From IMG/VR virus record IMGVR_UViG_2695420822_000010: a stretch of 5,566 bases of DNA. One strand, written 5' to 3'. Both the position numbers and the translations under genes were made by a program. The notes under the pieces are model-generated. The model searched no databases and was not told where the DNA came from. It saw only the letters and a list, made by a program, of their open reading frames with translations. Positions 1 through 5,485 of the stretch are shown here, piece by piece (position 1 is the stretch's first letter; every line of letters begins with the position of its first letter). The stretch is from a virus (Duplodnaviria; Heunggongvirae; Uroviricota; Caudoviricetes).

Positions 1-950
1 ACGCGCTTGCGGGTAAGCAACCGAAAGATGCCACCCTGACGGCGCTGGCCGGACTTACTACTGCGGCAGGCAAGTTTCCGTATTTTACGGGGAATGATGT
101 CGCCAGCCTGGCAACCCTGACAAAAGTCGGGCGGGATATTCTTGCGAAATCGACCGTTGCCGCCGTTATCGAATACCTCGGTTTACGAGAACTCGGCACA
201 AGCGGGGAGAAAATACCGTTACTCAGTACAGCGAATACCTGGACTAATCGACAAACATTCAGCGGTGGCCTTTCTGGTGAACTATCCGGCAATGCTTCTA
301 CAGCTGCAAAATTAAAAACTGCCAGGAAAATAAGCAATGTGGCTTTTGATGGTTCCTCCGATATCACATTAAAAGCAAGTCATGTTGGTGCGTTTGCCTT
401 AGGGAAAACAGGAAGCACCGTTGCGAATGATAAAGCAGTTGGATGGAACTGGAGTAGCGGAGCCTATAACGCAACTATTAGTGGTGCATCAACGTTAATT
501 ATTCATTTTTATATGGGAGAAGGAAGTTGTCCTGCAGCTCAGTTTCGGATTAATTATAAAAATGGCGGTATTTTTTATCGTTCAGCCCGTGATGGTTATG
601 GTTTTGAAGCCGACTGGTCCGAATTTTACACCACCAGAAAACCTTCAGCAGGAGATGTTGGTGCACTGCCGTTATCTGGTGGTCAACTGAATGGTGCACT
701 GGGTATCGGAACATCCAGTGCTCTTGGCGGTAATTCGATTGTATTGGGTGATAATGACACGGGCTTTAAACAAAAAGGCGATGGTAATCTGGATGTTTAT
801 GCTAATAACGTCCATGTTATGCGCTTTGTCTCCGGAAGCATTCAAAGTAATAAAACCATAAATATTACGGGACGTGTTAATCCCTCGGATTACGGTAACT
901 TTGATTCCCGCTATGTGAGAGATGTCAGACTTGGCACACGAGTTGTTTAG
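1..950 (+). CDS. stf: Side tail fibre protein (lambdoid Stf-like), C-terminal portion, cassette A. 5' end lies outside the window (codon phase 3); reading frame ends at an in-frame TAG at 948-950.
   Basis: The frame is open from base 3 to 950 with no stop. The translation (..[71 protein letters not shown]) shares a [14 protein letters not shown] block and a VRD(V/I)RLG block with the minus-strand cassette C protein (4292-5104). The supplied ORF 339..950 only starts at the first GTG; the true ORF continues upstream. Confidence 0.8.
   Translation, partial: ALAGKQPKDATLTALAGLTTAAGKFPYFTGNDVASLATLTKVGRDILAKSTVAAVIEYLGLRELGTSGEKIPLLSTANTWTNRQTFSGGLSGELSGNASTAAKLKTARKISNVAFDGSSDITLKASHVGAFALGKTGSTVANDKAVGWNWSSGAYNATISGASTLIIHFYMGEGSCPAAQFRINYKNGGIFYRSARDGYGFEADWSEFYTTRKPSAGDVGALPLSGGQLNGALGIGTSSALGGNSIVLGDNDTGFKQKGDGNLDVYANNVHVMRFVSGSIQSNKTINITGRVNPSDYGNFDSRYVRDVRLGTRVV
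166..191. other. Candidate serine-invertase crossover site (gix/hix/cix/pix-like), 12-2-12 imperfect dyad TTATCGAATACC-TC-GGTTTACGAGAA, inside the tail fibre coding sequence.
   Basis: Read directly. The left half TTATCGAATACC and the reverse complement of the right half TTCTCGTAAACC both fit the half-site TTATCnnAAACC of Hin/Gin-family crossover sites (consensus quoted from memory), with a 2-bp centre. It lies in frame in the tail fibre gene (encodes VIEYLGLRE), as gix sites do in Mu S. Confidence 0.55.
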
Positions 951-1100
951 ACCATGAAGAAAGGCGTGATGTATGAAAAATCAGGCCATGTAATCACGGG
1001 GCTTGGTATTATCGGTGAAGTCGATGGTGATGATCCGGCAGTATTCAGACCAATACAAAAGTTAATTAACGGAACATGGTATAACGTATCGCAGGTATAA
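951..1100 (+). pseudogene. In-frame continuation of cassette A after the TAG at 948-950; encodes the conserved tail-fibre C-terminal end (..[28 protein letters not shown]), stop TAA at 1098-1100. Together with 1-950 it forms one ancestral ORF interrupted by an amber codon.
   Basis: Same frame as 1-950. The translation [49 protein letters not shown] aligns with the C-termini of cassette C (..[41 protein letters not shown]) and cassette B (..[17 protein letters not shown]), and the homology runs straight across the TAG. A tfa start codon follows 2 nt after the stop, as at the other two cassettes. Confidence 0.7.
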
Positions 1101-1102
1101 TC

Positions 1103-1587
1103 ATGCAGCATTTAAAAAACATTGTCGCAGGTAATCCAAAAACCGTTGAACAATACCAGCTAACAAAGAATTTTGATGTTATCTGGTTATGGTCCGAAGA
1201 TGGAAAAAATTGGCATGAGGAATTAAAAAACTTTCAGGAGGATACAATAAAACTGGCTTACACAGTTGAGGGAATAATTATTGCTATAGACAAGGATGTA
1301 TCAGCAATTAATCCAGAAGGTTTAAGTGTCGTTGAGTTGCCTGATATTACAGCAAATCGCCGGGCTGATATTTCGGGCAACTGGATGTTCAAAGATGGTG
1401 CGGTGATAAAGCGAACTTATACCGAGGAAGAGCAAAGGCAACAAGCGGAAAATGAAAAGCAGAGCCTGCTGCAGCTCGTCAGGGATAAAACCCAGCTGTG
1501 GGACTCTCAGCTACAGCTGGGCATCATTTCCGATGAGAATAAACAAAAATTAACCGAGTGGATGCTCTATGCGCAGAAGGTTGAATC
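1103..1587 (+). CDS. tfa: Tail fibre assembly protein (Tfa family chaperone), cassette A; 3' end lost at the N-run 1588-1598.
   Basis: ATG at 1103, 2 nt after the tail-fibre stop. The translation [55 protein letters not shown] is homologous to the other two tfa copies in the window. The tail of the supplied ORF (1599-1660) is IS sequence read in an arbitrary frame after the gap and is not part of tfa. Confidence 0.85.
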
Positions 1588-1598: not shown

Positions 1599-1599
1599 T

Positions 1600-1839
1600 G
1601 AAAATCAACTTTCGATCAGTGAAGGCGCTTCCCGATTATCTCTTCCTGAAGGCACTTTAGGACAATGGGTTACCGCCGCCAGAAAAGGGCTCGGTACTCC
1701 TGGTTCCCGCACGGTGGCTGAACTGGAATCTGAAATTCTGCAACTGCGTAAGGCGTTAAATGAAGCTCGCCTTGAGCGAGATATATTAAAAAAAGCAACA
1801 GCGTATTTTGCACAGGAGTCGCTGAAAAATACGCGTTAA
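1600..1839 (+). CDS. IS3-family transposase OrfA, C-terminal fragment (..ENQLSISEGASRLSLPEGTLGQWVTAARKGLGTPGSRTVAELESEILQLRKALNEARLERDILKKATAYFAQESLKNTR*).
   Basis: Open frame from the gap edge to TAA at 1837-1839. It has the leucine-zipper-like C-terminus characteristic of IS3-family OrfA and carries the slippery A-run near its 3' end. Confidence 0.8.
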   Translation, partial: ENQLSISEGASRLSLPEGTLGQWVTAARKGLGTPGSRTVAELESEILQLRKALNEARLERDILKKATAYFAQESLKNTR

Positions 1840-1874
1840 TCGAACAATGGCGACAACAATTTCCCATTGAAGCG

Positions 1875-2693
1875 ATGTGTCAGGTATTTGGTGTATCCAG
1901 GAGCGGTTATTACAACTGGGTACAGCATGAACCCTCAGACAGAAAACAAAGTGATGAGCGGCTAAAACTGGAGATTAAGGTGGCACATATCCGCACTCGC
2001 GAAACATATGGAACCCGGCGGCTCCAGACGGAGCTGGCAGAGAATGGCATCATCGTTGGTCGTGACCGACTGGCACGTCTTCGTAAGGAGCTAAGGCTAC
2101 GCTGTAAGCAGAAACGCAAGTTCAGAGCGACTACGAACTCGAACCACAATCTGCCAGTTGCGCCAAATCTGCTGAACCAGACGTTCGCTCCTACAGCACC
2201 AAATCAGGTCTGGGTGGCGGACCTGACGTATGTTGCCACACAGGAGGGATGGTTGTACCTCGCTGGCATCAAAGATGTTTATACGTGCGAAATTGTCGGC
2301 TACGCCATGGGAGAGCGCATGACAAAAGAGCTGACAGGTAAAGCCCTGTTTATGGCGCTCAGGAGCCAGCGCCCACCTGCCGGGCTAATCCACCACTCTG
2401 ATCGAGGTTCACAGTACTGCGCATACGATTACCGGGTCATACAGGAGCAGTCTGGTCTGAAAACATCAATGTCGCGTAAAGGTAACTGTTACGACAACGC
2501 TCCGATGGAAAGCTTCTGGGGAACGCTGAAAAATGAGAGCCTGAGCCACTATCGTTTTAATAACCGGGATGAAGCCATCTCAGTAATACGGGAATACATT
2601 GAGATTTTCTACAATCGTCAGCGTCGTCACTCTCGTCTGGGGAATATCTCCCCGGCAGCCTTCAGGGAAAAATATCATCAGATGGCTGCTTAA
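1875..2693 (+). CDS. IS3-family transposase OrfB (DDE catalytic domain). The frame is open from 1791, so it is most likely expressed as an OrfAB fusion by -1 frameshifting at 1788-1794.
   Basis: The 272-aa ORF (MCQVFGVSRSGYYNW..VWVADLTYV..HSDRGSQY..CYDNAPMESFWGTLKNE..) carries the spacing and residues expected of an IS3-family DDE transposase. It lies in the -1 frame relative to OrfA and overlaps it. Confidence 0.9.
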   Translation: MCQVFGVSRSGYYNWVQHEPSDRKQSDERLKLEIKVAHIRTRETYGTRRLQTELAENGIIVGRDRLARLRKELRLRCKQKRKFRATTNSNHNLPVAPNLLNQTFAPTAPNQVWVADLTYVATQEGWLYLAGIKDVYTCEIVGYAMGERMTKELTGKALFMALRSQRPPAGLIHHSDRGSQYCAYDYRVIQEQSGLKTSMSRKGNCYDNAPMESFWGTLKNESLSHYRFNNRDEAISVIREYIEIFYNRQRRHSRLGNISPAAFREKYHQMAA

Positions 2694-2736
2694 AAAAAGA
2701 ACAAATGGTAGTGTCCGCTATTGCCAGTACACCTCA

Positions 2737-3003
2737 GAGTTTTACACCACAACCCGCAAACCCTCTGCGGGAGATGTTGGTGCATATACGCAGGCAGAAT
2801 GTAACTCAAGGTTTATTACAGGTATTCGCCTTGGTGGTCTGTTATCTGTTCAGACATGGAATGGTCCCGGATGGTCTGACAGGTCAGGTTATGTTGTTAC
2901 CGGTTCCGTTAACTCAAACAGAGATGAACTAATTGATACAACTCAGGCAAGGCCAATTCAGTATTGCATTAATGGGACGTGGTATAACGCGGGGAGTATT
3001 TAA
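2737..3003 (+). pseudogene. Tail fibre C-terminal cassette B, 3' fragment ([52 protein letters not shown]), with its 5' part displaced by the IS element.
   Basis: The supplied ORF 2599..3003 is IS terminal sequence up to 2736 and tail-fibre-like only from 2737. The fragment begins exactly at the motif EFYTT(T)RKPSAGDVGA, which is also present in cassette A at 621-665, and ends with the conserved RPIQ..I.G.WYN tip. A tfa start follows 2 nt later. Confidence 0.7.
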
Positions 3004-3005
3004 CG

Positions 3006-3695
3006 ATGATGCACTTAAAAAACATTTCTGCTGGTAATCCTGAAACAAAAGAGCAATACCAGCTAACGAAACAATTTAACATCAAATGGCTTTATACAGA
3101 GGATGGGAAAAACTGGTATGAGGAACAAAAGAACTTTCAGCCTGATACGTTGAAAATGGTCTATGACCACAACGGCGTTATTATTTGTATTGAAAAGGAT
3201 GTTTCAGCAATTAATCCGGAAGGCGCAAGCGTCGTTGAGGTTCCTGATATTACAGCAAATCGCCGGGCTGATATTTCGGGCAACTGGATGTTCAAAGATG
3301 GTGCGGTGATAAAGCGAACTTATACCGAGGAAGAGCAAAGGCAACAAGCGGAAAATGAAAAGCAGAGCCTGCTGCAGCTCGTCNNNNNNNNNNAGGTTCC
3401 TGATATTACAGCAAATCGCCGGGCTGATATTTCAGGTAAATGGATGTTCAAAGATGGCGTAGTGATAAAGCGAACTTATACCGGGGAAGAGCAGAGGCAA
3501 CAAGCGGAAAATGAAAAGCAAAGCCTGCTACAGCTCGTCAGGGATAAAACCCAGCTATGGGACTCACAGCTACGGCTGGGCATTATTTCCGACGAGAATA
3601 AACAAAAATTAACCGAGTGGATGCTCTATGCGCAGAAGGTCGAATCCACAGACACCTCCAGCCTGCCAGTAACGTTTCCCGAACAACCAGAATGA
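3006..3695 (+). CDS. tfa: Tail fibre assembly protein (Tfa family), cassette B. The ORF as assembled contains a 10-N gap (3384-3393) and a duplicated segment of roughly 140 bp, so the real protein is probably about 180 aa rather than 229.
   Basis: [22 protein letters not shown].. with stop TGA at 3693-3695. Segment 3243-3383 is identical to cassette A tfa 1340-1480. The sequence after the gap restarts at the same point (aggttcctgatattacagc..) as a roughly 94%-identical version. Confidence 0.8.
3384..3393. other. Run of 10 N inside tfa cassette B, flanked by two overlapping versions of the same tfa segment (contig-overlap join).
   Basis: Read directly; see the duplicated peptide [14 protein letters not shown](N/K)WMFKDG.. 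on both sides. Confidence 0.9.
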
Positions 3696-3698
3696 GAG

Positions 3699-3718
3699 AA
3701 GGCCCGCTATCGGGCCTT
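3699..3718. terminator. Perfect hairpin AAGGCCCG-CTAT-CGGGCCTT located 3 nt after the tfa cassette B stop, between the convergent tfa genes; candidate bidirectional intrinsic terminator.
   Basis: An 8-bp GC-rich stem with a 4-nt loop, read directly. The downstream U-tract cannot be assessed because the N-run starts at 3719. Confidence 0.5.
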
Positions 3719-3865: not shown

Positions 3866-4290
3866 GCCATATTCAGCCTGACAGCGCGTTCCAGCGGCTG
3901 GATGACTGATTCAGCTTCGGAAAGCAATGCGGCCTTTTGTGATTCGGCCTGTTGTTGCAGTTCCTGTTCTGTATATTCCCTCTTTACTACTTTACCATCC
4001 AGAAACATCCATTTTCCGTTATTGTCTGCGTGACGATTTGCCGTAATATCAGGAACTTCAACTATGCTTAGCCCTTCAGGATTAATAGTTGAAACGTCTT
4101 TACTGACAGCAACGATGATGTTGTTCTCATCGTAAGCAATTTTTATGGTGTCTGGCTGAAAATTCTTTTGTTCCTCATACCAGTTTTTGCCATCTTCGCA
4201 AAAGAGCCATACCACGCCCGCTTTTTTAGTTAGCTGGTATTGTTCCGGTGTTTTCGGATTCCCGGCCTTAATATTTTTCAGGTGCATCAT
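3866..4290 (-). CDS. tfa: Tail fibre assembly protein (Tfa family), cassette C, minus strand; 3' end lies in the gap.
   Basis: The start is ATG ATG at complement 4290-4285 ([39 protein letters not shown]..), 1 nt after the stop of the minus-strand tail-fibre cassette. The first 12 codons of the supplied ORF ([12 protein letters not shown]) overlap the tail-fibre stop and are not used. Confidence 0.8.
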
Positions 4291-4291
4291 C

Positions 4292-5104
4292 TTAAACACT
4301 CCCCACGTTGTACCATATTCCCCCAATCAATTTCTGAATTGGCCTTCTGGCAACAGTGTCGACAATATCATCCGCATTGCTGTTAATTGCGGCTGTTAAA
4401 ACATAACCTGACGCATCGCCAAAGCCGTAGTCGCGCCATACGTTTTTATATTCAATGCTGCCAAGACGAATATCCCGAACGACATGATTATGCAGCCATG
4501 TGCTTAACCAGTTGTTTTCCCACACTGAACCATAAATATCGCCACTAGACGCAACTTGCGCACCACTTCCCAGCGCAAATCCCCCATCTGTTTTAAAAAT
4601 GAAATCACCACCACCATCTGAACCGTTATTAATATGAACACCATCACCACCGTTATCTTTCCACAAAAACATACGAATTCTTCCGTCTTCGTTGGCGAAT
4701 GTAATGTGGTGGCGGTAATTACTTTTTAATCTAAAATTGCTGCCATTAGATTCAATATCTTTATAAAGATGTAATCCTAACTCATCAATATGTCCGATGC
4801 GCGAACCATTTGAATAGAAGCTAATAATACCATCTCCATCTTGCCTAAATCCGGTGTCGTTATCTCCCAGAACAATGGAGTTTTCACCCAGTGCGTTATC
4901 AGTAGCTCCAATAGCTAGACCTCCTTTAATTTTGGCCCCGTGGCTGACAGATATAGCACCTGTTCTCAGATTTATAGCGAATGGCCTTAATGGGCCGATA
5001 TTACCGTTTTCGCCTTGTCCTTCAGCCGTCGGAATGAAATGAAGAAAATCTTCTGAACGACGGAAAATTAGACCGAAGGTATCATTGAAAATTCGCAGCG
5101 CATT
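4292..5104 (-). CDS. Tail fibre C-terminal cassette C, minus strand (receptor-binding tip variant); 5' part hidden by the 381-N run.
   Basis: Stop TAA at complement 4294-4292. The translation ..[58 protein letters not shown] shares blocks with cassette A but carries about 74 extra residues between the GDNDTGF block and the tip. Confidence 0.8.
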
Positions 5105-5485
5105 NNNNNNNNNNNNNNNNNNNNNNNNNNNNNNNNNNNNNNNNNNNNNNNNNNNNNNNNNNNNNNNNNNNNNNNNNNNNNNNNNNNNNNNNNNNNNNNN
5201 NNNNNNNNNNNNNNNNNNNNNNNNNNNNNNNNNNNNNNNNNNNNNNNNNNNNNNNNNNNNNNNNNNNNNNNNNNNNNNNNNNNNNNNNNNNNNNNNNNNN
5301 NNNNNNNNNNNNNNNNNNNNNNNNNNNNNNNNNNNNNNNNNNNNNNNNNNNNNNNNNNNNNNNNNNNNNNNNNNNNNNNNNNNNNNNNNNNNNNNNNNNN
5401 NNNNNNNNNNNNNNNNNNNNNNNNNNNNNNNNNNNNNNNNNNNNNNNNNNNNNNNNNNNNNNNNNNNNNNNNNNNNNNNNNNNNN
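5105..5485. other. Run of 381 N inside the minus-strand tail-fibre cassette.
   Basis: Read directly. Confidence 0.9.

Follow-up and report, generated by a model that had tools for sequence, protein, structure and literature searches.

A premature amber codon very probably makes a pseudogene of the side tail fibre gene in a defective lambdoid prophage of Shigella sonnei

The side tail fibre gene stf of phage lambda PaPa reportedly carries a frameshift, an observation that goes back to Hendrix and Duda in 1992, and the cryptic prophages of Escherichia coli K-12 have stf pseudogenes. In these cases a point lesion has hit stf in a lambdoid phage or prophage, the assembly gene is left downstream, and the lesion persists since the fibres are dispensable. 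In Shigella, pseudogenes accumulate through the expansion of insertion sequences (IS) and reductive evolution. Phage Mu has two alternative fibres, S with its chaperone U (PDB 5YVQ) and S' (PDB 8JU3), from opposed cassette pairs within an invertible segment, and a Caudo_TAP chaperone gene directly follows the fibre tip. In Mu, the assembly protein attaches to the fibre's distal portion, is retained on the virion and makes sure that the fibre trimerises correctly (PMC9608196). A cryptic-prophage counterpart is the P segment of e14, where short inverted crossover sites lie inside fibre genes and both orientations are found in sequenced genomes. This segment is flipped by PinE, PinQ and PinR, one of its chimeric fibres is claimed to serve the host, and recombinases of this family act on segments in other prophages (PMC12529663).

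We analysed a stretch of 5,566 nucleotides (IMG/VR record IMGVR_UViG_2695420822_000010; "the window" in the following), which, judged by its sequence, is from Shigella sonnei or a very close relative. The locus is that of a lambdoid prophage adjoining trpA and includes the tail-tip gene J, a lom-like gene, and stf together with its assembly genes. We found an in-frame amber codon in the variable part of stf (Table 1), which is very probably a nonsense mutation that makes an ordinary pseudogene in this defective prophage. The S. sonnei gene thus resembles its lambda PaPa and K-12 counterparts in all the respects named above; it differs from lambda PaPa stf in having an amber codon, 50 codons before the end, in place of a frameshift, and in that this lesion occurs throughout the S. 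sonnei data examined and lies inside an invertible cassette. With Mu, the locus shares the homologous C-terminal tip, the chaperone gene directly after it and the opposed cassettes within an invertible segment. However, the fibre here has a lambdoid constant part (phage_tail_N, side tail fibre type) and not a myoviral one, and the chaperone- and receptor-binding end is left untranslated because of the stop.

Table 1. Features of the window (L-numbers denote S. sonnei loci used for comparison)
Feature	Positions	Strand	Evidence
stf constant part, 3' end, joined to the TAG cassette in the window	3-165	+	match to L011/L012
26-bp Gin/Hin/Pin-type crossover site TTATCGAATACC TC GGTTTACGAGAA, left border of the invertible segment	166-191	.	
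Variable tail fibre part (cassette A) as far as the premature stop	192-947	+	Pfam gp37_C, Mu S/S' homology
Amber nonsense codon TAG, from CAG (Gln) by one C>T	948-950	+	orthologue and S. sonnei comparison
Orphaned coding sequence of the conserved distal fibre tip (49 codons and TAA)	951-1100	+	Mu S alignment, invariant columns
Cassette A gene for tail fibre assembly (chaperone), truncated by an N run	1103-1587	+	Caudo_TAP PF02413, E = 3e-27
IS3-family insertion sequence without its first ~126 nt	1599-2737	+	100% identical to L005 9656-10794
Mu S'/P1-type fibre tip fragment and assembly gene ("cassette B")	2738-3718	+	E. coli matches
Visible part of the cassette C assembly gene (opposed cassette)	3866-4290	-	100% identical to L008 from 8815
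Intact variable part of the cassette C fibre (opposed cassette)	4292-5104	-	L008 identity

The tail fibre reading frame is open from the start of the window to the TAG, and beyond it 49 sense codons lead to a TAA at 1098-1100. In L012, a finished genome with the window's orientation, stf begins 1.7 kb further upstream, carries a phage_tail_N domain and comprises 926 codons (925 sense positions and the terminal stop), among which the TAG at codon 876 is the sole internal stop. A previous reading of the window from its sequence alone (the sequence-only reading) had reported this in-frame TAG, its coordinates and the translation downstream of it, all of which proved correct on re-reading. It had also claimed that homology to the other two tips of the window continues past the TAG without a change of frame; this was borne out by alignment to the Mu fibre, by E. 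coli orthologues of ~99% identity and by an alignment of six tips.

Pfam gp37_C was found in the fibre, whose part upstream of the stop matches the Mu S/S' chimera of PDB 8JU3 (E = 3.9e-55). When glutamine was written at the stop position before aligning, the last ~76 residues aligned with positions 424-502 of Mu fibre S, which has 504 residues (PDB 5YVQ, E = 4.5e-16), and the segment lost after the TAG with positions ~449-502, that is, with the extreme C-terminus of Mu S. Our six-tip alignment comprised the cassette A tip, two E. coli orthologues, the two other tips of the window and Mu S; 13 of its 17 invariant tip columns fall beyond the stop, and the lost 50 residues include the motif RPIQK-ING-WYN, which is common to otherwise diverged tips. 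The homology across the stop is not a matter of chance, because the Mu S alignment, the full-length coding sequences (CDSs) of E. coli orthologues and the invariant tip columns all speak for it. The Caudo_TAP assembly gene begins three bases past the TAA of the fibre; its product has 177 aa in finished genomes, and it is called at 8150-8683 in L005-L014. Homology and this adjacent gene both place the fibre with the Mu S, P2 H and lambdoid Stf-type fibres that are paired with a Tfa chaperone, but the uninterrupted C-terminal tip expected of an Stf-type fibre is broken by the TAG, which splits off the last 49 codons.

The DNA here is ~99% identical to lambdoid prophages of the closest complete E. 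coli genomes, which adjoin potB or trpA, and ~91% identical to P2-like E. coli prophages. Orthologues of both kinds have one annotated fibre CDS, which ends at the equivalent of window position 1100. In a codon-level alignment, all four aligned orthologues carry CAG (Gln) where the window has TAG, a difference of one C>T transition. We counted both alleles in 5,426 complete E. coli genomes by 35-base queries, built so that no 28-base seed word misses position 948; those for CAG doubled as positive controls of the method. CAG was found with the window's flanks in 6 genomes and with the P2-like flanks in 66 (72 together), and TAG in none of the 5,426 with either version. The comparison with orthologous loci that the sequence-only reading had proposed has thus revealed a sense codon at this position and CDSs that continue to the conserved end. 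Since all checked orthologues carry CAG and read through, the stop is derived and not the natural end of the gene. A Dcm-methylation hotspot was rejected as the origin of the transition, the ancestral context being GTTCAGACC and not CCAGG. The 150 nt downstream of the TAG show 0-1 differences from the E. coli orthologues; such near-identity would fit a young clone, yet on these few differences it gives no positive sign of relaxed selection.

Among the genomes sampled, the mutation was seen only in S. sonnei. There, the TAG lies at the same place in all ten loci that we fetched, which come from finished as well as draft genomes and from several projects, whichever way round the segment described below is turned. 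It divides the frame into an upstream ORF called as 203 aa (339-950) and the 48-aa ORF (954-1100), each of which is present on at least 1,000 public contigs; the exact 48-aa ORF was found in 2,201 blocks of a public assembly collection, and its ten listed places are large contigs or chromosomes, including that of strain 53G (HE616528.1). The names attached to the exact 203-aa and 48-aa sequences are those of S. sonnei, including Ss046 (Q3Z104_SHISS), whose genome, like that of 53G, is a finished one. Positions 1-1587 of the window correspond to 7048-8634 of L011 and L012 with one mismatch, and positions 175-1587 are identical, base by base, to L005, L008, L011, L012 and L013, leaving no variation to measure. 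The pattern of the site was absent from a scan of a species-representative genome collection, a set without the window's genome.

The TAG-bearing cassette borders on a crossover site whose partner, visible in L008 and L010-L013, lies 2.9 kb away in L011, where the two sites form a 30-nt imperfect inverted repeat with 83% complementarity. In the window, the second site would fall within the N run at 5105-5485 by comparison with L008 and L011. The S. sonnei crossover sites are at 7209-7238 and 10129-10158, as compared between L008, L010 and L013 on the one hand and L011 and L012 on the other. The outer half-sites are TTATCGAATACC on the constant side and TTATCTAAAACC on the recombinase side, the inner ones GGTTTACGAGAA for the TAG cassette and GGTTTACAGGAA for the opposed cassette, and they are swapped exactly at the core between L011, L012 and the window versus L008, L010 and L013. 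With the segment flipped, L008, L010 and L013 yield gene calls for a 918-aa fibre. L010 and L011 are redundant ends of a single long-read contig (UGZB01000001.1) with flanks of at least 99.9% identity, and the 2.95-kb segment is flipped between them; both states were therefore present in one DNA preparation. On the evidence of these sequences, the segment still flips in S. sonnei by site-specific recombination. Homologous recombination was rejected as the cause, as the sole inverted repeat that flanks the segment in S. sonnei has 30 nt at 83% complementarity and the exchange occurs at the core of the site.

Paired inverted sites and both orientations are thus found, as in segments of the Gin/Hin/Pin/Cin type, but the intact serine recombinase gene expected next to them is not: the recombinase beside the cassettes, in S. 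sonnei as in the closest E. coli orthologues, is a 60-aa ORF with a Resolvase domain. Since this is only a remnant, an invertase encoded elsewhere must act in trans. The e14 P segment is similar in that its serine recombinases, too, can act from another prophage; the S. sonnei segment differs in that the remnant makes action in trans necessary, and in that one of the two alternative fibres carries an amber mutation. A rough census of exact products on contigs gave 72 contigs with the truncated 875-aa fibre, in which the TAG cassette is joined to the constant part (and 30 more where it is called as 391 aa), 277 with the intact 918-aa fibre of the opposed cassette, and at least 1,000 with the 203-aa ORF of a detached TAG cassette. 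At 9241-9555 and 9594-10750 in L005-L007, L009 and L014, an IS3-family element trims the opposed cassette to a 104-aa ORF. Beyond it these loci have neither a constant fibre part nor a second crossover site, so that the TAG cassette should be locked in the detached state. By analogy with StfE2 and the PinQ system of e14, one of the alternating 875-aa and 918-aa fibres might have been kept for a host function, such as the masking of a phage receptor, with the amber codon silencing one of the phases; we consider this very unlikely.

The conserved tip might be restored from a second translation product; the sequence-only reading had thought a separately translated tip peptide conceivable. A restart at ATG954, 3 nt past the TAG, or at ATG969 would supply a peptide of 43-48 aa that rebuilds the tip of a split gene. 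Both ATGs are present as claimed and open ORFs of 48 and 43 aa, respectively. The distance from the TAG to ATG954 is short enough for termination-reinitiation, a process known for nonsense mutants in E. coli, and the 48-aa ORF is called by gene callers. However, pairing with the 3' end of 16S rRNA amounts to -2.5 kcal/mol for ATG954 and -3.2 kcal/mol for ATG969, which is at background: the mean over all ATGs on the window's + strand is -2.2 kcal/mol, and the real assembly-gene starts reach -3.9, -7.6 and -8.3 kcal/mol, the last of these at the strong ribosome-binding site of the cassette C gene with its start codon at 4290. The arrangement is, moreover, confined to one young clone and seen in none of the orthologues checked, and nothing indicates that such fibre fragments complement each other. 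A weak restart after termination is possible, but a function for it is unsupported, and a rebuilt tip is distinctly improbable.

Suppression or readthrough of the amber codon, for example by a suppressor tRNA that inserts glutamine, would yield the full-length fibre. Such a reading could draw on the fact that the TAG replaces a Gln codon and that the tip downstream is intact in sequence. The window itself contains no tRNA, however, and the 16-kb flanks of six S. sonnei loci gave tRNA-Arg (two) and tRNA-Met only; no Rfam family was found on either strand of the window. The stop is conserved in no orthologue checked, and since the gene has a single in-frame TAG, there is no recoding pattern. Strong amber suppressors are not known from natural Escherichia and Shigella isolates, and basal readthrough of UAG falls far short of what a trimeric structural protein requires. 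We therefore regard a full-length product as very unlikely.

A sequencing or assembly error, with C as the true base at 948, would agree with the draft quality of the window, which has four N runs, an IS that starts internally after 11 Ns and a duplication around a 10-N gap, but it can practically be discarded, since the TAG recurs in independently assembled loci, finished chromosomes among them, and both ORFs that it creates are so widespread on public contigs. That the TAG is the natural end of the fibre and the similarity downstream a relic of an older, longer gene has nothing in its favour beyond the stop itself and is hardly conceivable, given that the lambdoid and P2-like CDSs continue past it and that most invariant tip residues, included in the solved Mu fibre, lie downstream. 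Of the four alternatives offered by the sequence-only reading, the pseudogene has stood; error and a natural stop are refuted, and readthrough or a separate peptide is unsupported.

The same reading had called the TAG-bearing unit "cassette A" of three. The layout with three of them is doubtful, because finished S. sonnei genomes have two cassettes here: the opposed cassette directly follows the 177-aa assembly gene, with no middle cassette in between. In the window, 3866-5104 is identical to L008 8815-10053, and the cassette C assembly gene is called in the loci as a Caudo_TAP gene at 8712-9239. The IS3-family element at 1599-2737, which we take to be IS600, has the transposase domains HTH_Tnp_1, rve, rve_2 and rve_3. 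It starts internally, directly after the 11-N run at 1588-1598 (in L005, the element begins at about 9530), and the finished S. sonnei loci lack it at this position. This stretch is probably a scaffolded contig and not the true local sequence, and the three-cassette layout is probably a scaffolding artefact. The middle unit (2738-3718) shares 98.5% identity with another E. coli prophage and about 94.6% with E. coli plasmid records, and its tip (2738-3003) is almost the same as that of the Mu(-) fibre S' in PDB 8JU3. Since this tip is fused to the right end of the IS, an IS has inserted in a second fibre gene of the Mu/P1 type somewhere in the genome. The 10-N run at 3384-3393 is flanked by two divergent versions of the same assembly-gene stretch. 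Despite the doubtful layout, the three tips of the window are useful for comparison.

The pseudogene is in keeping with the state of its surroundings. J is frameshifted in L008 (about 14387-14408) and L012 (about 2960-2980), where overlapping ORFs of 547 and 513 aa replace what is one open gene in the closest E. coli orthologue, and IS1 and IS3-family elements have inserted in the S. sonnei prophage. We call the prophage defective because of this frameshift, the IS insertions, the recombinase remnant and the IS-truncated opposed cassette. The suggestion of a pseudogene in a cryptic prophage is thus supported by the CAG orthologues, the reproducible TAG and the other lesions of the prophage.

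A single C>T change has turned CAG into TAG in the variable, receptor-binding cassette of stf. Translation would halt at codon 876 and give an 875-aa fibre that lacks its last 50 residues. These residues make up the distal tip that Mu S, P2 H and lambdoid Stf-type fibres have in common, the putative docking place of the assembly chaperone encoded immediately downstream. The truncated product should be unable to form a working tip, because the homologue of the 50-residue distal end of Mu S is missing; it is expected not to fold or trimerise, or not to bind its receptor, and sequence comparison thus points to a loss of function. As J is broken, no infectious particles would be formed. Selection would then not act on the truncated fibre, and the lesion would be neutral and lasting.

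The finding is an ordinary one, and both ORF pieces are already in public S. sonnei annotations. A nonsense mutation beside IS1 and IS3-family insertions and a frameshifted neighbour, in a host-restricted clone, shows no difference of substance from other Shigella pseudogenes, and S. sonnei stf is one more instance of them. For annotation, it calls for caution: the S. sonnei "phage tail proteins" of 203 aa and 48 aa both derive from a single broken gene, of which they are the two halves. The TAG could also serve as a clone-specific marker, because all S. sonnei copies examined have it, as against none of the 5,426 complete E. coli genomes. Finally, a fibre segment that still inverts although no invertase adjoins it is in line with the role in host defence recently claimed for fibre cassettes of cryptic prophages.
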